DNA of 64,000 nt, from assembly GCA_002491605.1 (NCBI GenBank), contig DKWG01000066.1, positions 196-64,195 on the forward strand, read 5' to 3'. The stretch is from Ruminococcus sp. UBA7158 (GTDB lineage Bacteria; Bacillota; Clostridia; Oscillospirales; Ruminococcaceae). Positions within the stretch are counted from its first letter, which is position 1. Each line of letters opens with the position of its first letter. Of the stretch, positions 1,685-59,371 are shown piece by piece. Under the pieces are notes generated by a model. That model worked only from the letters and a program-made list of their open reading frames with translations. It was not told the DNA's origin and did not search any database. The position numbers and the translations under genes were made by a program.

Positions 1685-1883
1685 GCACGTTTTCTATATC
1701 ATAGCACGTCGCTTTTATGATATAAAAAATAACGAAAACAGCATAGATTCAAAGCTTGCGCTCCGAATCTATGCTTATACGTTTACTGTTATATTGATTT
1801 AACACGCTGCTTTTCTCGCCGCTGAAGCGGCAGCCGAAAACGATGCACAATTAAATCATCGCTCTTCGCCCTTATGATATAAT
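1685..1883 (+). repeat. Copy A of a dispersed intergenic module (AT-rich inverted repeat / TGnTATAA box, hairpin 1, long imperfect hairpin 2, second inverted repeat / TGATATAAT box)
   Basis: Positions 1806-1883 align almost base for base with 58115-58193. Hairpin 1 is 1740-1775 and hairpin 2 is 1806-1848. Inverted repeats are ATATCAT/ATGATAT (1696-1702 / 1717-1723) and ATCAT/ATGAT (1855-1859 / 1874-1878). Confidence 0.55.
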
Positions 1884-4139
1884 CATACAATCAAGATAAA
1901 GTGCACCCTGAAGCTCACCTGTCGCTTTAAGCTCAACGGTATTATCGCCCTTATTGAGCTTAACTTCAATTGTGTATTCCTGCCAATCGCTTGCCGATGA
2001 GGTCTTGCCAAGGCTCAGAGAGGAAACCTTTTTGCCGTTTACATAAAGATTCAGCTTTGAAATTGACGCATCCGGAGAAGAATATCTCAGGGTAAGAGTA
2101 TACTTACCGTCCTCCAAGACACTTACATGGTCTAATACTGCGGCGTCTTCCTTGCTGCCGAATATCATGTAGCCCTGACCCTTAAAGCCGTCAACACCGC
2201 TGCGGCAGCCGTTGGGAAGGTTCTTCTGTATGCTGATGCTGTCAAAGTTTTCTGCCTCATACTGATGAGGACCATGGTAAACGGGAGGTCTTTTCGGCTC
2301 AACAAGTGTCGCCGTTTTGTATTCAGTGAGACGTCCTGATTCTGTGCCCTTTGCCGATATCTCGATATCGATAGGTCCGTTGTGTTCAATCGTAGCTGTG
2401 AACACGCCGCCCTCCCAGCTTGTATTGACCTTGCTTTTTACCTGTGACACTCCCCTGTCGTTATAGGTAAGAGTCGGTTCTTCTGTACAGCCATAAACCT
2501 TTATAACGTCAGTCTTGAGCTTAAATGCGCTCAAAAGCTCGTTATCATAGTTGTTTAGGTATATCTTGAGCGAATCGGCATACTCGCTTATAATTCCGCC
2601 GGAATACTGCGACAATGTCAGCTCCACCTTATCAGCGGTATTATATTTGAACGGAATAACGCCCTCGGCAGACTGTCCGGACTTGTACGGATTGTACACA
2701 GTCCATGTGTTGTCGCTCCTTCGAGCGTAAATGTCGCCTGTGTATTCCTCGGGGAACAGCTCATTCAGCTCGGCGAGCTTATTCTCCTCCTTGCCCCAGC
2801 GCTTGTTATACTCACTTGAGTTAATCTGAATTTCAAAGCCCTTTGCGGTATCGTCTGCAAGAGCATATACGGTTGGTATAGTCGGATATCTTCCTGACTT
2901 CTTGAAGAAGTTTCTGTTGTCACGGAGCATACCGTCGTTATCCATCTTATACAGCCCGTTGAACAGGGTCTTCGGCGAGCAGTATTTAGCGTCATCGTCG
3001 CCCTTATCGACGTCCTGAATTATAACCGCTTTAGTGTTATTTATTACCTCTTCACGGGTGGGTATTCTTATCGTGCCGTCCAAAACCTTTCTGAAGATAT
3101 CTATCATAACATTTTGGAACTGATCATACATCTCCCACTTTCTCGAGCTGTAGCCCTGCTCGGTTCTCTCGGCAGACGTCTCTCTGAAGCATTCGGTCCA
3201 GATAAGCTCAGGACCGTCTATAACAGTATAGCCCTGCTGCATCAGTCTTTCAAGGTGGATAGCAACGCCGGTTGCCATTGTAAACTTTGTATTTGTCTGA
3301 CCGTCGGGTCCTGTCCAGCCGGAGCCGTCGTATCTAAGACCTGCCTGACCTGAATAGCCCGAAAGATATGCGCCTAAAACCTGACTTTCAACATCGTGCA
3401 AATAGCCTACCTGAGTGTGCTTTTCACACAGAATGTAGTTTTCGGTATAGTCAAGGCAAGCCTGCTCAAATTCCGGCACCTGCTTAAGCATTGCAATAGG
3501 ATTGAGCGCCTGACCCCACTGATTTCCGCACCAGCTGACAACCAGATATCCGCCGTAGTCATGAGTTAGCTTTAAAAGATTGGTAAAATGCTTATATCTT
3601 TCGATGTAGGTTGTCGGGAAGTCCTCCTGGTCGAAGCCCCAGAACTGTTCGCAGTAGTTAAAGCCCAAAAAGTTCGGATAATCCCTGAAGAATTCTTCAA
3701 AAATTGTGTCCTTCATATCTGAGGGTTCTACATAATCCGGGAAATGGCACTGTCCGCCGCTGGCAGGCTGAATCATTGCCCAAACGTTTTTCTCAGCACA
3801 GGTTCTGAGCCATGATTTTGCGCACTCATAACCGTCGTTGACAAGTCCCCATGTTTTTGTGTCGCTGTCCCAGCTTATTGAAAGAGAAATGTTGAATACA
3901 ACATACGGCAAAATGTCCTCGGGGATTAAATCTATTATCTTTTCGGGGTCGGCATTGTTCCACGAGTCAATATGAACAATCCACATCGGCTGCTCTGTGG
4001 AAATAGGACGTCTCAATTCGCCGTTCGGCTCACAGACACTGACCGTTCTTTCAACCGTCGGCGACTGACCGCAGGCACAGCACGTTATAAGCATTAATAC
4101 AGCCATCAATGCACAAACGGCCTTCTTAAAATTTTTCAT
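1872..4139 (-). CDS. Secreted (lipoprotein-anchored) glycoside hydrolase with C-terminal CBM6/CBM35-like module; catalytic family possibly GH98-like (unverified)
   Basis: 755-aa ORF with a signal peptide and lipobox (LITCCAC). The catalytic region is acidic/aromatic-rich (NYCEQFWGFD, WCGNQWGQ). The C-terminal ~130 aa (YEAENF...GQGYMIFG...LTLRYSS...LYVNGKK...W.EYTIEVKLNKGDNTVELK) matches the CBM6/35 pattern. The GH98 idea comes from domain sizes and memory only. Confidence 0.7.
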   Translation of the reverse strand: MKNFKKAVCALMAVLMLITCCACGQSPTVERTVSVCEPNGELRRPISTEQPMWIVHIDSWNNADPEKIIDLIPEDILPYVVFNISLSISWDSDTKTWGLVNDGYECAKSWLRTCAEKNVWAMIQPASGGQCHFPDYVEPSDMKDTIFEEFFRDYPNFLGFNYCEQFWGFDQEDFPTTYIERYKHFTNLLKLTHDYGGYLVVSWCGNQWGQALNPIAMLKQVPEFEQACLDYTENYILCEKHTQVGYLHDVESQVLGAYLSGYSGQAGLRYDGSGWTGPDGQTNTKFTMATGVAIHLERLMQQGYTVIDGPELIWTECFRETSAERTEQGYSSRKWEMYDQFQNVMIDIFRKVLDGTIRIPTREEVINNTKAVIIQDVDKGDDDAKYCSPKTLFNGLYKMDNDGMLRDNRNFFKKSGRYPTIPTVYALADDTAKGFEIQINSSEYNKRWGKEENKLAELNELFPEEYTGDIYARRSDNTWTVYNPYKSGQSAEGVIPFKYNTADKVELTLSQYSGGIISEYADSLKIYLNNYDNELLSAFKLKTDVIKVYGCTEEPTLTYNDRGVSQVKSKVNTSWEGGVFTATIEHNGPIDIEISAKGTESGRLTEYKTATLVEPKRPPVYHGPHQYEAENFDSISIQKNLPNGCRSGVDGFKGQGYMIFGSKEDAAVLDHVSVLEDGKYTLTLRYSSPDASISKLNLYVNGKKVSSLSLGKTSSASDWQEYTIEVKLNKGDNTVELKATGELQGALYLDCMIIS

Positions 4140-4159
4140 TAATTTCTCCTCAAAGCGTA

Positions 4160-6424
4160 TTATGAGATAACGAAGTTATCAATATAAAGCTCATCTGCAA
4201 GTGTTGAATCAGCTTTAAGCTCAATCTTGTTTTCACCCTTATTGAGCTTAATCTTTGCAGATACCGTTCCCCACTTGCTTGTTGAACCTGTCTTCTTCAG
4301 ACTCAGAGTTTTTACCTTCTGACCGTTGACGTACAAAGCAAGACCTGATATATCGGCTTTCGCCGCCGCATACCTGAGTGTAAAGGTGTACTCACCGGAT
4401 TTGAGCGCTGTGACAGTATCTCGAACCGACGCTCCGCTCTTCTTTCCGAATATCAGATATCCCTGACCTTGGAAATTGTCAACTCCTGTGCGACAGCCGT
4501 TTTCGACATACTTATTGCAGTTTTTAATATCAAAGTGCTCTGCTTCGTACTGATAAGGTCCTGCGTATATCGGAGGTCTTGCAGGGGCTGTTATTCCTGA
4601 CTTTTTGTACTTTGTAAGCCTGTCTGTGTTTTTGCCCTTGGCATTTGTCACGGTTATATCAACAGGACCGTTGTGCTGTACCTTTACAGTCAGCACACCG
4701 TCCTTCCACAAAGTCGTTACCTTGCTCTTTGCCTGGCTTACTCCCCTGTCCTTATATGTAACCTTTGGCTCTTCTGTACAGCCGTAAATCTTAATAAGGT
4801 CAGTCTTTAAATCTGTAGACTTGGAAAGCTTGTTGTCGTAGTTATTCAGATAGAATTTGAGTGAATCCGAATACTCGGTTACAACGCCGCCGGAGTACCT
4901 TGAAAGCGACATCTCGAAGTAATCTGCGGTATTGTATCTGAAATTAACTCTTGCAGTTGCAGCCTTGCCTGATTTGAACGGATTATATACAGTCCACGCA
5001 TTTTCGGAGCTGCGAACATACATATTTCCTGCGTATTCTTTTTCAAAAATTTTGTTAAACTCTGCAACCTTCTTCTCAACTCTGCCCCAACGGGAAGCGT
5101 ATTTTGTATAGTTGACCTGATATTCAAACGATTTTGCCGCATCGTCTGCGAGATTATAAACCGTCGGAATTGTGGGATAGCGTCCTGTCTTCTTGAAGAA
5201 GTTGTGGTTATCCCTCAGGTTGCCGTCGTCGTCCATTCTGTAAAGTCCTTCAAATAAGGTCACAGGAGAGCAATACTTTCCGTCGTCAGAGGCATATTTA
5301 TTGTCCTGAATAATAACTACCTTTGTTCTTTCAATAACCTCTTCACGGCTGGGAATTCTTATCGTCCCGTCAATAAGCTTTCTGAATATGTCTATAGAAA
5401 TATTCTGGAACTGATCGGTCATCTTCCAGCTTCTATAGGTATAGCCCTGACTGTCTGTTTTCTTCCAATTCTCGTTGAAGTCGTCGTTCCAGATGAGCTC
5501 AGGACCGTCTATAACGGTAAAGCCGCACTGCATAAGACGTTCAATATGAGGCGCTATGCCGGTTGCAAGGGTGTAGTTCTTGTCGTGATCTCCGTTTTCG
5601 TCAGTCCAGCCGGTTGAGTCGTACCTTAAGCCTGCCTGTCCTGCATATCCGGAAAGGTATGCTCCCAAGACCTGACTTTCAACGTCCTGCAAATATCCGA
5701 CCTGAGTGTGCTTTTCGCAAAGAATATAGTTTTCGGTGTAATCAAGGCATGCCTTCTCAAACTCAGGAACCTGCTTAAGCATTGCAATAGGATTGAGCGC
5801 CTGACCCCACTGGTTTCCGCACCAGCTGACAACCAAATATCCGCCGTACTTATGAGTCAGCTTTAAAAGGTTGGCAAAATGCTGATATCTTTGTTTATAG
5901 GTTGTCGGAAAATCCTTTTGGTCAAAGCCCCAGAACTGTTCGCAGTAGTTAAAGCCCAAAAAGTTGGGATAGTCCCTGAAAAACTCACCGAAAAGGGTGT
6001 TTTCAAGGTCTGTGTTCGGCTCATAGTAGTCAGGGAAGTGGCACTGTCCGCCGCTTGCAGGCTGAATTAACGCCCACACGTTCTTTTCGGCGCAGGTTCT
6101 CAGCCATGACTTAGCCAGCTCATAACCGTCGTTTACCATGCCCCATGTATGAGTGTCGTGGTCATAGTTAATAGACATGGAAATATTGAAAACAACATAC
6201 GGCAAAATGTCCTCGGGAATAAGGTCAATTATCTTTGCCGGGTCGGCATAGTTCCATGTGTCGATATGTACAATCCACATCGGCTGCTCAGGTGAAACAG
6301 GTCGTCTGAGTGTTGGCTCTTTAGCTTTCGCAGTTGACTTTGTTGCCGCAAAAGCAGAAGTCGGCAGTATGCATACAGTCATAACCGCAGCCAACAGCAA
6401 GCTTATAAATCTTTTCAGCTTCAT
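4160..6424 (-). CDS. Secreted glycoside hydrolase, tandem paralog of 1872-4139, with C-terminal CBM6/CBM35-like module
   Basis: 754-aa ORF with a cleavable signal peptide (PTSAFAATKS). Long blocks are identical to the neighbour (QPMWIVHID.W, IIDLIPEDILPYVVFNIS, SWLRTCAEKNVWA.IQPASGGQCHFPDY, GGYLVVSWCGNQWGQALNPIAMLKQVPEFE). Only 20 nt separate the two genes. Confidence 0.7.
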   Translation of the reverse strand: MKLKRFISLLLAAVMTVCILPTSAFAATKSTAKAKEPTLRRPVSPEQPMWIVHIDTWNYADPAKIIDLIPEDILPYVVFNISMSINYDHDTHTWGMVNDGYELAKSWLRTCAEKNVWALIQPASGGQCHFPDYYEPNTDLENTLFGEFFRDYPNFLGFNYCEQFWGFDQKDFPTTYKQRYQHFANLLKLTHKYGGYLVVSWCGNQWGQALNPIAMLKQVPEFEKACLDYTENYILCEKHTQVGYLQDVESQVLGAYLSGYAGQAGLRYDSTGWTDENGDHDKNYTLATGIAPHIERLMQCGFTVIDGPELIWNDDFNENWKKTDSQGYTYRSWKMTDQFQNISIDIFRKLIDGTIRIPSREEVIERTKVVIIQDNKYASDDGKYCSPVTLFEGLYRMDDDGNLRDNHNFFKKTGRYPTIPTVYNLADDAAKSFEYQVNYTKYASRWGRVEKKVAEFNKIFEKEYAGNMYVRSSENAWTVYNPFKSGKAATARVNFRYNTADYFEMSLSRYSGGVVTEYSDSLKFYLNNYDNKLSKSTDLKTDLIKIYGCTEEPKVTYKDRGVSQAKSKVTTLWKDGVLTVKVQHNGPVDITVTNAKGKNTDRLTKYKKSGITAPARPPIYAGPYQYEAEHFDIKNCNKYVENGCRTGVDNFQGQGYLIFGKKSGASVRDTVTALKSGEYTFTLRYAAAKADISGLALYVNGQKVKTLSLKKTGSTSKWGTVSAKIKLNKGENKIELKADSTLADELYIDNFVIS

Positions 6425-9177: not shown

Positions 9178-9461
9178 ATAAAAAACCTGTCCCAAAGCTT
9201 TACTGCCGGGACAGGATAAAATTCCTGCGGTGCCACCCTGCTTGACGATAAATAATCGTCCACTTGATTCGTACATCACAATACGACAGCTTTTTTCACG
9301 GAGGGCTTACTCCGTCGCACATACTAAAAATAACTCTGCGAATTATTTCGTTCCGATTGCCCTTAGAAGTCCATTCAGCTGCACATTACACACCGCTTCT
9401 CACCAAACAGCGGCTCTCTGAAGTATAATTGATGAAGCTTACTCACTCTTCCTCAACGGTT
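9178..9461 (-). promoter_or_regulatory. T-box riboswitch leader, specifier UGG (Trp)
   Basis: Read on the minus strand: AGAGAG box (9414-9419), specifier-loop context GAA-UGG-A (UGG = complement of 9371-9373), T-box core AGGGTGGCACCGCAG (9226-9239). Terminator CCTGTCCC/GGGACAGG (9186-9215) plus a T run. Confidence 0.8.
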
Positions 9462-9467
9462 TAACAC

Positions 9468-17496: not shown

Positions 17497-17525
17497 TTGA
17501 AAACGCACTTGTGCCATGATATAAT
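17497..17525 (+). promoter_or_regulatory. Near-consensus sigma-A promoter with extended -10 (TTGAAA-17-TGaTATAAT)
   Basis: -35 at 17497-17502 and -10 at 17520-17525 with TG at 17517-17518. It lies about 215 nt upstream of the CotH-family gene. Confidence 0.6.
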
Positions 17526-17536
17526 AACAATAAGCA

Positions 17537-17609
17537 AGCTGTAAACAGCTATTATACTGATTTAAAGTATGCCGTTTTCTCATTGGCGGTTTTTAATGAG
17601 AATGTAGCA
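17537..17609 (+). repeat. Copy C of the dispersed hairpin module (hairpin 1 AGCTG-TAAA-CAGCT; linker ATTATACTGATTTAAAGTA; hairpin 2)
   Basis: Collinear with 58082-58158. Hairpin 1 differs by a compensatory pair (AGCCG/CGGCT vs AGCTG/CAGCT). The hairpin 2 core is TTCTCATT/AATGAGAA, flanked by TGCC...GCA as in the other copies. Confidence 0.5.
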
Positions 17610-17743
17610 AAAGCCAACAGCCGCCGTTTCCGACATTACATTATATTGCCATATACAAAAAAGCATTTTTATGCTTAATCGTTTAAAAGATATAAGACTC
17701 AAGACAAAAAAGATATTCTTTCAGTCTTTTTTGAAAGAAAGGA

Positions 17744-19679: not shown

Positions 19680-20276
19680 TTATCTCTTCTTAGAAACAGC
19701 GATTGCAGCAGCAGCTACAGCCATAGGAAGAACTGCTAAAACGATACCTGTGTTAGCAGGAGCAGCAGGAGTTGTCTCTGCGGGAGTCTCAGCAGGTATT
19801 TCTGCAGGAGTCTCTGCCGGAGTTTCAGCAGGTGTCTCAGCAGGAGCAGCAACGTCAGCAACTACTTCGAGAACCTCAAAAGTGGTGTTTGCAAGAGGAG
19901 TTGCATAGTCAGGACCCTTTACCTGCAAAACAGAAGGCTCAGAAGAACCGCCGTAAGCGCCGCTGAGGTCACAGTACAAATCAAATGTAGCTTCGAAAGC
20001 ACCGTCAACAACTTCAACAACAGCAACGTCTGTTACACGGGCAACATCAGCAGAGTCTGTTAAATAGAATCTAACAGCAGTGTTATCACTTGTTCCCTTA
20101 ACATTTACAGTAACTGTAGCACCGTCAGAAACATCAACACCCTCAGGAATAGCTACCTGGAAGTTCTCGTTGAGTCCGGTACCAATCTCACCGGTAAGGT
20201 CAACATTAGCGAAAACGCTGACGCTGAGAGCCATAACCATAATCATTGCAACTGCGATTGATAAAATTTTCTTCAT
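19680..20276 (-). CDS. Secreted surface protein with (P)AET tandem repeats and a C-terminal sorting-signal-like tail
   Basis: Start MKKILSIAVAMIMVMALSVSVFA, with RBS AGGAGGAAAAAAC directly before the ATG at 20276. The C-terminus is ...PANTG-IVLAVLPMAVAAAAIAV-SKKR: a motif, a hydrophobic helix and a basic tail. Confidence 0.65.
   Translation of the reverse strand: MKKILSIAVAMIMVMALSVSVFANVDLTGEIGTGLNENFQVAIPEGVDVSDGATVTVNVKGTSDNTAVRFYLTDSADVARVTDVAVVEVVDGAFEATFDLYCDLSGAYGGSSEPSVLQVKGPDYATPLANTTFEVLEVVADVAAPAETPAETPAETPAEIPAETPAETTPAAPANTGIVLAVLPMAVAAAAIAVSKKR
19770..19841 (-). repeat. In-frame 12-nt tandem repeat encoding AETP x6
   Basis: Encodes AETPAETPAETPAEIPAETPAETT, visible as GCAGGAGTCTC-type periodicity on the plus strand. 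Confidence 0.8.
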
Positions 20277-20552: not shown

Positions 20553-20629
20553 CGAGGTGTAACTCAGTTTGGTAGAGTGCTTGGTTTGGGACCAAGATGC
20601 CGCAGGTTCGAGTCCTGTCACCTCGACCA
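20553..20629 (+). tRNA. tRNA-Pro (anticodon UGG), CCA encoded
   Basis: Manual cloverleaf: acceptor CGAGGTG/CACCTCG, D arm ACTC/GAGT, anticodon arm CTTGG-TTTGGGA-CCAAG, T arm GCAGG-TTCGAGT-CCTGT, discriminator A, then CCA. Total 77 nt. Confidence 0.9.
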
Positions 20630-28960: not shown

Positions 28961-29241
28961 AAAATAAAAACGCCCTCGATGAGTATAAAACTCAAAGAGG
29001 GCGATTAAATCTAAACCGCTGTACCACCTCAATTTGCCAAGTGCATATTAAACGCAAGCTTGACCTCAAGGGCGCTGTAACGTGCGCAAAACGCATACTC
29101 CTACTTTACCGCTTCACATAAAGCGCTGTTCAGAATACAAACTCCAAGATGTATTCACACGCCGCATAACGCTTTCTCACACCGACCGAAAGCTCTCTTG
29201 AGTTAAAATCATGCGTGCTACTTCTTCTTTTCACAGTCATT
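28961..29241 (-). promoter_or_regulatory. T-box riboswitch leader, specifier UAC (Tyr)
   Basis: Read on the minus strand: AGAGAG (29193-29198), GAA-UAC-A specifier context (UAC = complement of 29151-29153), T-box core AATTGAGGTGGTACAGCGG (29016-29034). Terminator CGCCCTC/GAGGGCG (28971-29003) plus TTTTTATTTT. Confidence 0.8.
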
Positions 29242-29247
29242 GTCGAC

Positions 29248-37477: not shown

Positions 37478-37821
37478 TTATTTCTGCGCTCCCTTCTTTT
37501 TATTAACACACCGAACGGTGCAATGAGTCTCGATGATTATGAAAGCTTCTTTCAATTATTAAAAGCCGCTTATGTATGCAAATAGAAATTCGATATCATT
37601 TTGCCGAGTTTTCGGTTACACTTTTCATCCTTGAAAAAACAGCGCATTTATTATAGCACACCGAATCACATTTATCAACAGCATAAATAAGCTTTTGGTC
37701 TATTCAAAAGCAATTTAATAAATTCGCAATACTAATAAGAAAAAATAATCAATCATACAACCCAAACTTTTTACATATTATTAATCAGCGACATATCGAA
37801 TACCGAAAGGAAGGGTTATAA

Positions 37822-40046: not shown

Positions 40047-40272
40047 TTCATCACTTCCTCAGAGTTAATACTATATATTATATAAAAAATTCACCGACTG
40101 TTATACATTATAATTATACAACGTCTACCGGAATAAATCAAGCTCCGCAGATCAAGCCGTATTGGCTTTTTCTGCGGAGCTTTTTAATCTTTACTCTCAA
40201 CTATTATAATTATCTATGAGTGTCGTTTTGTGACAGGAGAAGCGGCCCGAAAATGATGATTCGAGTCTTCGT

Positions 40273-57290: not shown

Positions 57291-58016
57291 ATGAAAAGAG
57301 GACGGTTCAGTCAGACTGAACTAAAAGCTATCATGGAAAACAATCACGACGGTCACCGCCAACGGCTCAGATCGGAATTCTTAACCAACGGTCTCAACTC
57401 GCTGCCGCCTCAAAGAGTGTTGGAAATGCTCTTATTTTACTCAATACCGAGATCTGATACCTATCCTATCGCCTGCAGGCTCATCGAGCGCTTCGGCAGC
57501 ATTCAAAATGTGTTTTCAGCCGACTGTGATGAGCTGAAGCAGGTAAAGGGCATAAGCGACAGCTCCGCTGTGCTTATAAAGTTTGCCGCATCGCTTATGA
57601 ATTACAAGTACCACGATCCCATAATAGGCGAAGAAATAAAAAACATCAACGACCTGCTCCGTGTATTTAAAAAGCTCTTTACTTCAATTGAACAGGAGCA
57701 GGTAAGGCTTCTTTGCATTGACGAAAATCTGCGAATTGCCGATAACATTCATTTAGCCAACGGCGGCGCATCATCTGTGAGCTTTGACCCAAACGATGTT
57801 TTGCAGTGCGTAAAAAAGTCGAAATGCAGATTCTGCGCTATCGGTCACAATCATCCGAACGCTTCATGCGAACCGTCTAAGGAGGACGTCGAAGCGACAA
57901 ACCGCCTTAAAAGAATGCTTGAACAAAACGGCTGCACTCTGCTTGAGCATATCATAATCGGCAACGACGGCGAAAGCTCAGTCATGCGAGGAGACGTCAG
58001 ATATCTGTTTGTGTGA
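57291..58016 (+). CDS. radC: RadC-family JAB/MPN domain protein
   Basis: GHRQRLRSEF N-terminus, an HhH region, and the JAMM motif AIGHNHPNASCEPSKEDVEAT. Confidence 0.85.
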   Translation: MKRGRFSQTELKAIMENNHDGHRQRLRSEFLTNGLNSLPPQRVLEMLLFYSIPRSDTYPIACRLIERFGSIQNVFSADCDELKQVKGISDSSAVLIKFAASLMNYKYHDPIIGEEIKNINDLLRVFKKLFTSIEQEQVRLLCIDENLRIADNIHLANGGASSVSFDPNDVLQCVKKSKCRFCAIGHNHPNASCEPSKEDVEATNRLKRMLEQNGCTLLEHIIIGNDGESSVMRGDVRYLFV

Positions 58017-58074
58017 TTATTCATAATTTTTTCTTAAAAATCAGTGCATTTTTTGTTGTGTTTTCGGAGAAATA

Positions 58075-58193
58075 TGTTATAATAGCCGTAAACGGCTATT
58101 ATAATTATTTAAATGTGCCATTTTCTCGCCGCTAAAGCGGCAACCGAAAATGATGCACAATTATATCATAACGCTTTGCTTTCATGATATAAT
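58075..58193 (+). repeat. Copy B1 of the dispersed module (TGtTATAAT box, hairpin 1 ATAGCCG-TAAA-CGGCTAT, hairpin 2 at 58115-58158, inverted repeat TTATATCAT-14-ATGATATAA)
   Basis: It aligns with 1806-1883 and 17520-17609. Hairpin 2 is GTGC-CATTTTC-TC-GCCGC-TAAA-GCGGC-AACC-GAAAATG-AT-GCAC. Confidence 0.55.
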
Positions 58194-58350
58194 GACTTGG
58201 AGCTTATAGCTCCGAGTCTGAAAGTACCGCCGTCATGGCGAAGCGTTAGCGTCGTTTTAGAATGCAAACGCATTTTTTCGGCTTGTGCGATTGTTATGAA
58301 TTAAGCGTGCCGTTTTCCGACTGCTGATTCGGCAACGAGAATTTTTCACG
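58184..58350 (+). repeat. Copy B2 of the dispersed module (TGATATAAT box, hairpin 1 GGAGCT-TATA-GCTCC, internal small hairpins, hairpin 2 at 58306-58350)
   Basis: The order of elements is the same. Hairpin 2 is CGTG-CC-GTTTTC-CGA...TCGG-CAAC-GAGAAT-TTTT-CACG, with an outer stem that differs from B1 in a compensatory way. Confidence 0.45.
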
Positions 58351-58498
58351 GTCTCATATAAGGTAAAGCTTAGATTTCATTTATATTTATATCAATACTC
58401 AATAATCATTTTTGTGCAGCGTTACGCACAAGGCTTTCCCTGCCGTTTGTATGGCGTGAAAACATAAACCGCCGAAAGCTTAGCTTTGCTAAGGAGGA

Positions 58499-59371
58499 AT
58501 GATTAAAAACATGGATTTTCGATATGAAGACTGGAGCGAGGGCACTGCTACATACGGCATTGTCGCCTTCTACAGTGTTGATGTGCATACAATCACTCAC
58601 ATTCAAAGCCAGGTCGAGCTGATACTTGTTGAAAAGGGCAGCTTAAGGGCAAAGGTAAGCGGTCATGAGTTCACCGTTGACGAAGGAAACGGTCTGCTGA
58701 TATGTCCCCATGTGCTGCATCAGTACTCACCCGTAAGCGAGGGAACCGTTGTCAGCACATTTATATTCAGCACAGAGTTTTTGAGCGACTTCAAGGCGTT
58801 TTTTGAGAGCGGAAACGTGCCGTTTGTAAAATACAAAAAAGATAAATGTCCTGAATTTGCACGAAATCAAACAAAATACCTTATAGATTTCTCCCATAAC
58901 TACAGCTTCGGAAAAACTGTTATGAAGGGACTGCTTACCGCTTTTCTTTCCGGAATTATGCCGGCATACTCGGGCGGTGAATTTGAAGAGCACAGAGAAA
59001 AGGCGTCGAATTTTGAAATATGCCGACAGCTGCTATTGTATATAGACAACAACATATCTCAGGATTTGTCCCTCGAGAAAATATCCAAGGCATTAAATAT
59101 CGTGCCTTCCTATGTCTCAACTGTTTTTTCAAGGAATTTTAATACTTCACTTAATTCGTACATTGCCAGAAAGCGTGTTTCATGCGCCAAGCTGCTTTTA
59201 ATCAATTCGCAGAAAACTATAACTGAAATCGCCTTTGAATCCGGCTTTTCCAGTATCCGCAGCTTCAACCGCAGATTTAAGGACCGTGAGGGCTTAACGC
59301 CCAGCGAATACAGAGAATCGTTTATGCAATTGCCTAAAGACAATGCAGGCGAAGAGAATACGGCGCAATAG
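58499..59371 (+). CDS. AraC-family transcriptional regulator (cupin N-terminal domain)
   Basis: C-terminal dual HTH: LSLEKISKALNIVPSYVSTVFSRNF...ITEIAFESGFSSIRSFNRRFKDREGLTPSEYR. Confidence 0.85.
   Translation: MIKNMDFRYEDWSEGTATYGIVAFYSVDVHTITHIQSQVELILVEKGSLRAKVSGHEFTVDEGNGLLICPHVLHQYSPVSEGTVVSTFIFSTEFLSDFKAFFESGNVPFVKYKKDKCPEFARNQTKYLIDFSHNYSFGKTVMKGLLTAFLSGIMPAYSGGEFEEHREKASNFEICRQLLLYIDNNISQDLSLEKISKALNIVPSYVSTVFSRNFNTSLNSYIARKRVSCAKLLLINSQKTITEIAFESGFSSIRSFNRRFKDREGLTPSEYRESFMQLPKDNAGEENTAQ

Follow-up and report, generated by a model that had tools for sequence, protein, structure and literature searches.

A dispersed module of promoter-like boxes and covarying hairpins in the intergenic DNA of Oscillospiraceae

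The window analysed here, a stretch of 64,000 nucleotides from the Ruminococcus sp. UBA7158 assembly GCA_002491605.1 (contig DKWG01000066.1), contains two consecutive copies, B1 and B2, of a module composed of extended -10 promoter boxes and three hairpins (H1, H2, and H3). They are located in the 482-bp spacer between radC (57291-58016, +) and the gene for an AraC-type regulator (58499-59371, +). The module is a real and previously undescribed intergenic family without a catalogued counterpart, which is neither tied to radC and the AraC-type gene nor confined to the window genome, and its structure is under selection. It behaves as a duplicative element rather than as the site of a regulon. 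As far as can be read from the sequence, its TGnTATAAT boxes match the promoter signature of the organism and are hairpin arms at the same time. A preliminary description made from the window had proposed either a structured RNA or an element resembling repetitive extragenic palindromes (REP) or miniature inverted-repeat transposable elements (MITE). Of that proposal, a genuine dispersed family with covarying stems and repeat behaviour has stood, and the evidence on action as RNA or as DNA is divided. The reading that we tentatively favour, at a probability of about 0.4, is a duplicative promoter and hairpin cassette of Oscillospiraceae that is not specific to any gene and that would give rise to RNAs with H2 at or near their 5′ end. 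The anatomy of the module, its covariation, spread among taxa, and repeat behaviour, and its promoter-consensus matches with their positions are matters of direct observation.

The full module shows a constant order of parts: a -35 element outside the repeated part, box1 (TGnTATAAT), H1, ATTATA(AT), the linker (G)ATTTAAnnn, H2, H3, and box3. Box1 is the 5′ arm of H1 and ATTATA(AT) the 3′ arm, and the inner stem between them is variable in sequence. The start of H1 right at the -10 box, which had been taken for a peculiarity of B1, is instead a conserved feature of the whole family. The core hairpin H2 (44 nt) comprises an outer stem of 3-5 bp, a further 2 bp, the helix UUUUC/GAAAA, an internal loop UC/AACC, the helix GCCGC/GCGGC, an apex loop that is either UNAA or UAC, and a two-nucleotide AU bulge on the 3′ side of the hairpin. 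Among the unpaired nucleotides, the UC/AACC loop, the AU bulge, and the linker are invariant. H3 is built from a 5′ arm ATTATAnCAT, a loop often containing ACGCTT..GC, and a 3′ arm ATGnTATAAT that includes box3. The palindromes of H1 and H3, which measure 10-18 bp, are nearly perfect. In tandem modules, which were found as B1-B2 in the window and at the loci L024 (a-b) and L034 (a-b), a single box closes H3 as its 3′ arm and opens the following H1 as its 5′ arm. The older copies, B2 and the window copies C, D, and E described below, mainly retain a -10-like hexamer, the 5′ half TGCCGTTTTC, and the 3′ half GA(A/G)AAT. At locus L033 (~790-835), a 44-nt G+C-rich hairpin (GGCCCAGGCCGACTTCTCTTGGCCTTTGGCC...) is inserted in the 3′ internal loop of H2 and may be a second small element nested within the module.

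In B1, box1 is the extended -10 sequence TGTTATAAT (58075-58083, +), which forms the 5′ arm of H1 and has a possible -35 element, TTGTGT, 17 nt upstream. H1 (58077-58104) is a perfect 12-bp palindrome, TTATAATAGCCG-TAAA-CGGCTATTATAA, with a terminator-like appearance on both strands, and a simple terminator pattern matched it on the minus strand only. Box2 (TATAAT, 58100-58105) and the conserved AT-rich linker TATTTAAAT, ending at the base of H2, occupy 58100-58114 (+). H2 itself (58115-58158, +) reads, part by part, GTGC CA TTTTC TC GCCGC TAAA GCGGC AACC GAAAA TG AT GCAC; it scores 77.7 bits with R1, a covariance model of linker and H2, shows covariation, and coincides with breaks in short-read assemblies. 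H3 (58160-58193) is the palindrome ATTATATCAT-N14-ATGATATAAT, carrying box3 (TGATATAAT, 58185-58193, +) and a mirror box on the opposite strand (58160-58168, -). B2 begins with a leading hairpin, GACTTGGAGCT-TAT-AGCTCCGAGTC (58194-58218), the loop of which had been misread as TATA; all the parts first listed for the two modules are present at the positions reported for them or within 1-2 nt. The B2 core (58292-58350, +) consists of a -10-like TGTTAT (58292-58297), the linker GAATTAAG, and a diverged H2 (58306-58350) with the outer stem CGTG/CACG and the apex CGA/TCG. A terminator-like hairpin, GCGTT...AAACGC followed by ATTTTTT (58243-58278, +), is placed in the interval between B1 and the B2 core and was not called by a strict terminator scan. 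Compared with shuffled sequences, the 299-nt B1-B2 stretch gives folding z-scores of -7.4 on the plus strand and -6.7 on the minus strand.

A repeat search and an nhmmer profile identified six copies in the window (A, B1, B2, C, D, and E), rather than the four first claimed, with E-values between copies ranging from 1e-13 to 1e-37. Both approaches recovered the two copies already placed near 1685-1883 and 17497-17609, now delimited as A (1786-1883) and C (17497-17610), and D (40201-40265, +) and E (37603-37678, -) are additional. Copy A (+, 57 bits with R1) includes H2 (1806-1848), H3 (1850-1883), and box3 TGATATAAT (1875-1883), has an additional H3-like unit nearby (1695-1725), and lies between the stop codon of a minus-strand GH98 gene and the terminator of that gene (1775-1740). 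Copy C (17517-17609, +), upstream of a CotH gene, shows box1 TGATATAAT (17517-17525) with TTGAAA 17 nt upstream, an H1 core AGCTG-TAAA-CAGCT (17537-17550), TATACT (17553-17558), and an H2 with a different apex (17570-17609). In copy D, a TATAAT (40205-40210) and a diverged H2 extend over 40205-40262 (+) between two flanking minus-strand genes. Copy E (-) is found upstream of DUF951-prfA-sua5-coaE and has a diverged H2 (37643-37603) that begins ~6 nt past the -10 box of a canonical promoter, TTGATA-17-TGCTATAAT. In the region next to copy A (1872-6424, -), two GH98 glycoside hydrolase genes (755 and 754 aa) are arranged in tandem; they are paralogues with CBM6/CBM35 modules and share 70-86% DNA identity in blocks at an offset of 2291 nt.

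The compensatory stem changes noticed among the window copies proved to be real and acquired statistical support once copies from other organisms were included. In the H2 model alignment, 94.4% of the cells are paired, double changes occur in 8 of the 16 pairs, and none of 500 shuffles reaches the observed values; in a control in which the partners were slid by 1-3 columns, pairing amounted to 36-54%. Because the search pattern dictated the apex helix, the informative pairs of H2 are the six outer ones together with the changes in the copy from Vescimonas, in which the stems UUUCC/GGAAA and GCCCC/GGGGC are compensated. R1 gives 56-78 bits for canonical copies, 46 bits for the Vescimonas copy, and 35 bits for L033 with its 44-nt insertion. 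At ten positions of H3 that include box3, the eight distinct versions show 78 Watson-Crick pairs out of 80 and no G-T pair, and nine compensated double changes were counted versus two one-sided changes. Such changes are also found within the -10 hexamer (TGTAAT/ATTACA, TATTAT/ATAATA, and TATAAC/GTTATA), and a variant TAAAAT/TTTTA retains nine of ten Watson-Crick pairs. A strain allele represented by L011/L035 differs by ~30 mostly transitional substitutions across 58183-58340; the B2 hairpins still fold, with the leading hairpin preserved via one C-G to T-A change and three G-T wobbles. As a separate observation on the strains, this patch (58183-58340) is sharply bounded by flanks of 100% identity, and like patches are present at ~47400 and ~53000, which suggests a recombination mosaic.

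Regarding the boxes, the motif TGNTATAAT occurs at 20 sites in the window against 2.6 expected, an enrichment of about eight-fold, and the 14 sites outside the modules are mostly upstream of genes with a TTGACA-like -35 element at 17 nt. The enrichment and these -35 elements make the motif usable as a promoter marker for the window organism. Exact TGnTATAAT sequences are found in the modules at 58075, 58185, 58160(-), 1875, 17517, and 37658(-). The boxes had been framed as either promoters or hairpin arms, and it is this alternative that fails, since they appear to be both. No nearby complement was found for the 14 outside sites (matches of at most 7/9), so that a -10 box within a hairpin is specific to the module. 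Box1 is accompanied by a -35-like element at 16-18 nt in ~7/10 copies, and these elements are placed outside the sequence common to the copies (TTGATA at L025, TTGAAA in C and L024a, TCGACA at L041, TTGTGC at L031, and TTGTGT in B1). Box3 lies ~30-60 nt upstream of a ribosome-binding site (RBS) and start codon at L025, L030, L032, and L040. In addition, 13 of the 20 copies have a TAnnnT hexamer whose end lies 5-11 nt upstream of the base of H2, a placement found at 12% of random window positions.

The window species is a member of the human gut Oscillospiraceae and is represented by several metagenome-assembled genomes and many sequencing runs. A metagenome scan with the H2 apex TTTTCTCGCCGCTNAAGCGGC as query returned 18 loci, ~14 of which carry the full module, in source organisms with a GC content of 0.43-0.61. 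Three loci (L025, L030, and L034) share the GC content of the window (0.445), and L030 is assigned to the window species (via L077). By blastn, one copy was found in cultured Vescimonas fastidiosa MM35 (NZ_AP023416.1, 725,450-725,520) and a partial copy in Pusillibacter faecalis; copies beyond the window, for which the preliminary description had proposed to search, therefore exist in metagenomes and in V. fastidiosa alike. Viral contigs and phage records gave no match to the module, and matches in a plasmid collection were restricted to chromosome-like replicons of Vescimonas and Pusillibacter; a phage or plasmid origin was rejected on these grounds. The replicons, NZ_AP023416.1 (V. fastidiosa, 861 kb) and NZ_AP023421.1 (P. 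faecalis, 504 kb), are labelled as plasmids; they carry core housekeeping genes, among them gyrA/B, topA, secA, and those for ribosomal proteins and tRNA ligases, and resemble chromosome pieces or chromids. Beside the Vescimonas copy (L052 19160-19790; NZ_AP023416.1 ~725,720-726,350), a ~960-nt non-coding stretch contains G+C-rich hairpin repeats ending in CCCCTACGG(A), which are a different REP-like family and which the apex of the Vescimonas H2, GCCCCTACGGGGC, resembles.

In species-representative genomes, the pattern TTATANTNATTTAAN{3,5}TGCN{1,3}TTTCTC gave only nine chance matches in unrelated taxa, and a literature search with the core sequence yielded nothing relevant. Rfam 15, applied to the whole window at gathering thresholds, reported only two T-box leaders and one tRNA, all outside the module copies, and at E <= 10 the matches within 57950-58550 are scattered, each with E >= 1.7 and far under the family thresholds. 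A known RNA family was rejected on the basis of these two comparisons, in agreement with the preliminary description, which had matched the module to no familiar riboswitch or sRNA family. The T-box leaders are located at 9204-9465 (-) and 28994-29243 (-), with 102 and 125 bits, and the tRNA gene at 20553-20626 (+).

The module shows the behaviour of a repeat. Short-read contigs that contain radC stop at 58101-58144 and those that contain the AraC-type gene start at 58115-58144, indicating an exact multi-copy repeat at roughly 58078-58173; one contig also breaks within an H2 beside ClpC, and the identity between B1 and L025 spans 58075-58168. The variable stems are common to the copies of one organism, being GTGC/GCAC in the window species and GTC.CC/GG.GAC in both L024 copies, and a CGC-type stem is common to L040 and L041. 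The density is six copies per 64 kb in the window, one per 22 kb in another region of the same species, and one in 240 kb of a Vescimonas replicon, and no copy was found in 27 kb of the sister lineage GCA_965333835.1 (~72% nucleotide identity in genes). At the locus of copy E, the sister lineage has kept the DUF951-prfA promoter, TTGATA-17-TGATATAAT, and the RBS GGAGCGCA, and ~140 nt starting with H2 are absent; at the ClpC-side copy, synteny with the sister lineage ends right after ClpC. The neighbouring genes encode AraC, CotH, DUF951-prfA, an XRE regulator, a lipoprotein, phosphofructokinase, an acyltransferase, a membrane protein, MATE, and GH98. These genes are functionally unrelated, so that the module is not a riboswitch, and the association with a particular gene class that had been considered did not emerge. 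About ten copies have the same direction as the gene that follows and about five face a convergent gene. The plus strand of the window, which carries five of the six copies, is C-rich by GC skew, and the minus strand is therefore the lagging-strand template. All six window copies are present in all strains examined. As a separate feature of the sister assembly, non-coding DNA replaces a sigma-like gene between clpX and mgsA (L075 5789-6351); this DNA has tandem repeats of TGTACAA at its two ends, inverted relative to each other, and contains two long internal repeats that are nearly identical.

In the cassette reading, rightward firing would come from box1, usually with its own -35 element outside the repeat, from the -10-like box2 that ends H1 on its 3′ side, or from both, and the resulting RNA would start with H2 or within ~25 nt of it. 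H2 could then stabilise the 5′ end or be a 5′ hairpin to which a host factor binds. Where the downstream gene is co-oriented, its proximal promoter could be box3, located in the 3′ arm of H3, and H1 and H3 might additionally be terminator-like insulators in both directions. We infer the firing of the boxes, the transcript starts, and the action of H2 in RNA. Several observations speak for RNA, namely the short fixed distance from the -10 box to H2 even in old copies, the surplus of co-oriented genes, the invariant unpaired nucleotides, and the situation of L024b, where the only plausible promoter is upstream of H2, which would accordingly be within a 5′ untranslated region (UTR).

Other observations weigh against the cassette. 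Box2 is absent or weak in 7 of 20 copies, box3 lacks a -35 element, and H3 is not a classical terminator because most of its copies have no U-tract, the H3 of Vescimonas being by eye a good one in both directions. Approximately 5 of 15 copies (A, D, L029, Vescimonas, and Pusillibacter) face a convergent gene and point into its 3′ end, where a 5′ leader would make no sense. G-U pairs are nearly absent (3/250 cells in H2 and 0/80 in H3) and folding energies by strand show a mixed preference, so that DNA palindromes fit better than RNA helices. Furthermore, no empty site was found among ~10-20 strains at the four loci B, A, D, and E, which gives no sign of recent mobility. In the aligned stems, read by eye, A-C mismatches are about as numerous as G-U pairs, which also speaks for DNA, and the choice of strand from folding energies and from G-U versus A-C counts gave no consistent signal. 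A strict promoter scan of 57900-58600 found none. Public-assembly contigs upstream of DUF951, examined for transcript ends, are DNA-derived and start well before the promoter.

In the main rival, which we regard as somewhat doubtful, the module would be REP/MITE-like selfish DNA with hairpins that act in single-stranded or cruciform DNA. H2 would then be the hairpin recognised by a transposase acting in trans, for example one of the HUH/Y1 type (RAYT or IS200/IS605-type), the ATGnTATAAT ends would be terminal inverted repeats, and promoter activity would be a side effect, as in Correia elements. Such ends are present, as box1 ATG(T)TATAAT is matched by the reverse complement of the H3 5′ arm, ATG(A)TATAAT, and likewise at L025, L030, and L034. 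They bound an exactly repeated unit of ~95 nt, the palindromes are near-perfect in Watson-Crick pairing with almost no G-T pairs, and assemblies break within the copies. The genome-specific subfamilies, the tandem arrays, the occurrence in both orientations relative to genes, including convergent copies, and the strong variation in copy number across lineages would also fit selfish DNA, as would the lack of copy E at the orthologous promoter of the sister lineage and the common orientation of five of the six window copies on a single replichore. Against these points, no transposase stands beside any copy examined, no RAYT gene was seen in ~0.6 Mb of loci, and the 5′ GTAG-type tetranucleotide of REP is absent, H2 being an imperfect palindrome with the conserved 5′ flank (G)ATTTAA. 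There is no clear target-site duplication, as the flanking TA only extends the palindrome, and no presence/absence polymorphism among strains. Conservation extends to the loop of H3 (ACGCTT..GC), so H3 is no chance junction of separate insertions; the lone copy in 240 kb of Vescimonas still retains the H2 sequence; and box1 usually has a well-spaced -35 element, with box3 at promoter distance from genes.

Correia elements (CREE/NEMIS) of Neisseria are dispersed intergenic elements of ~100-150 bp bounded by inverted repeats. Set beside them by description, the module is alike in these respects and in its TA-rich start, its -10 boxes at the ends, its putative transcript hairpins, its unrelated neighbours, and its occurrence in either orientation. 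However, Correia elements have one long inverted-repeat pair, whereas the module has three palindromes with a conserved, bulged central hairpin. The module also lacks a demonstrable TA duplication or empty site, it occurs in single digits to tens of copies rather than hundreds, its core is conserved across genera, and its host belongs to another phylum, so that no sequence relation is expected. Pneumococcal BOX and enterobacterial REP/BIME elements, compared in the same way, are likewise intergenic mosaics of hairpin units with tandem arrangement, in which covarying stems preserve structure and sequence variants are genome-specific. Unlike REP, the module was not found with the hallmark 5′ GTAG or a cognate RAYT gene; unlike BOX and REP units, it is built on consensus extended -10 boxes and spans the whole family Oscillospiraceae, usually at low copy. 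Putative mobile promoters (PMC3575422) resemble the module in that closely similar promoter-bearing sequences precede unrelated genes within a genome and between taxa; that concept is based purely on similarity, whereas the boxes of the module are set in covarying palindromes with a conserved hairpin. Dispersed palindromic repeats and mobile promoters are known from other phyla, and the module is a variant of these, distinguished by the compensatorily paired extended -10 boxes and the bulged core hairpin conserved across genera.

A stand-alone "sibling" small RNA (sRNA) family, in which each copy would have its own promoter and encode a trans-acting RNA of H2 and a downstream hairpin, is unlikely. 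It would accommodate the Vescimonas copy, where H2 is followed by a long U-tract hairpin that by eye is a good terminator on both strands and would yield an RNA of ~130 nt, as well as the terminator-like hairpin with its T6 run after B1 (58243-58278) and the small hairpin and T-run after H2 at L027. The invariant unpaired UC/AACC, AU bulge, and linker, and the tandem copies, as in LhrC-type sRNAs, are also consistent with this idea. However, in most copies neither H2 nor H3 is followed by a U-tract terminator, and many reach a co-oriented gene 30-60 nt further on. There is no conserved seed-like loop, given an apex of UNAA or UAC and the 44-nt insertion at L033, and the scarcity of G-U pairs again speaks against an RNA helix.

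The ssoA-type single-strand origins of rolling-circle plasmids, which carry RSB and CS-6 motifs (PMC4598088, PMC5703833), figure in two further explanations. One, which we consider improbable, is a new class of chromosomal "hairpin promoter" or structured element, in which compensatory change would maintain, within the hexamer as well, the pairing of each extended -10 box with a complementary arm; the availability of the boxes would be set by extrusion of the hairpin or cruciform under supercoiling, at the replication fork, or in single-stranded DNA, and H2 would be a dedicated site, related to RSB, at which RNA polymerase or some other protein binds. The other, very improbable in our view, is an sso-like initiation signal or single-stranded DNA promoter, in which H1 and H3 would rebuild double-stranded -10 boxes and H2 would carry an RSB-like site for RNA polymerase. 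Like ssoA, a multi-hairpin Firmicutes element of ~150 nt recognised by RNA polymerase, the module has the 9-nt sequence CGAGAAAAT, which on the minus strand of H2 is identical to the core of the ssoA RSB motif TTATGCCGAGAAAATTT (PMC4598088). It also has a CS-6-like loop, since the minus strand of the H3 loop reads AAGCGT(T/C), near the CS-6 motif TAGCGT, and the minus strand is the lagging-strand template by GC skew. In contrast to ssoA, the RSB-like and CS-6-like motifs come in the opposite order, and the module is chromosomal and multi-copy, lying among housekeeping genes rather than on plasmids, integrative and conjugative elements, or phages. R1 misses the pT181 palA origin (its best score, 13 bits, is elsewhere in the plasmid), and pUB110 offers no exact RSB for comparison. 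Membership in ssoA was rejected on the reversed order, the R1 result, and the extent of the match, 9 of 17 RSB bases in one run of CGAGAAAAT.

The weakest explanations, a cis-regulator (riboswitch or leader) specific to the AraC-type gene or ordinary terminators and promoters alike by chance, can draw on the position of B2 in the putative 5′ UTR of that gene and on the minus-strand terminator pattern in H1, and were excluded in view of the same module beside unrelated genes in several genera, the nhmmer E-values, covariation far over the controls, and the 14 other TGNTATAAT promoters without a complementary arm nearby. CRISPR arrays and integron attC sites were rejected, as the modules are 110-190 nt or many kb apart and show no AAC/GTT core. 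Reading of the sequence likewise ruled out a leader peptide from the ATG of H2, dif/Xer sites, an invertible promoter, ANTAR/RAT targets, and CodY, LexA, and CIRCE operators. Elsewhere in the window, 12-nt periodic repeats (GCAGGAGTCTCAGCAGG-like) at 19756-19856 underlie overlapping open reading frames on both strands and probably encode a low-complexity repeat protein segment.

The Oscillospiraceae are abundant in the human gut and genetically little studied. The module accounts for recurring short-read assembly breaks in the window species, and it could flag promoters and transcript ends in uncultured genomes and provide regulatory parts for engineering members of the family. The compensatory change that keeps a -10 box paired with a nearby complement is unusual and makes a promoter-hairpin role testable. 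Should the module deliver promoters together with insulating hairpins and a shared 5′ hairpin, it would represent a route for transcriptional rewiring in the Oscillospiraceae.

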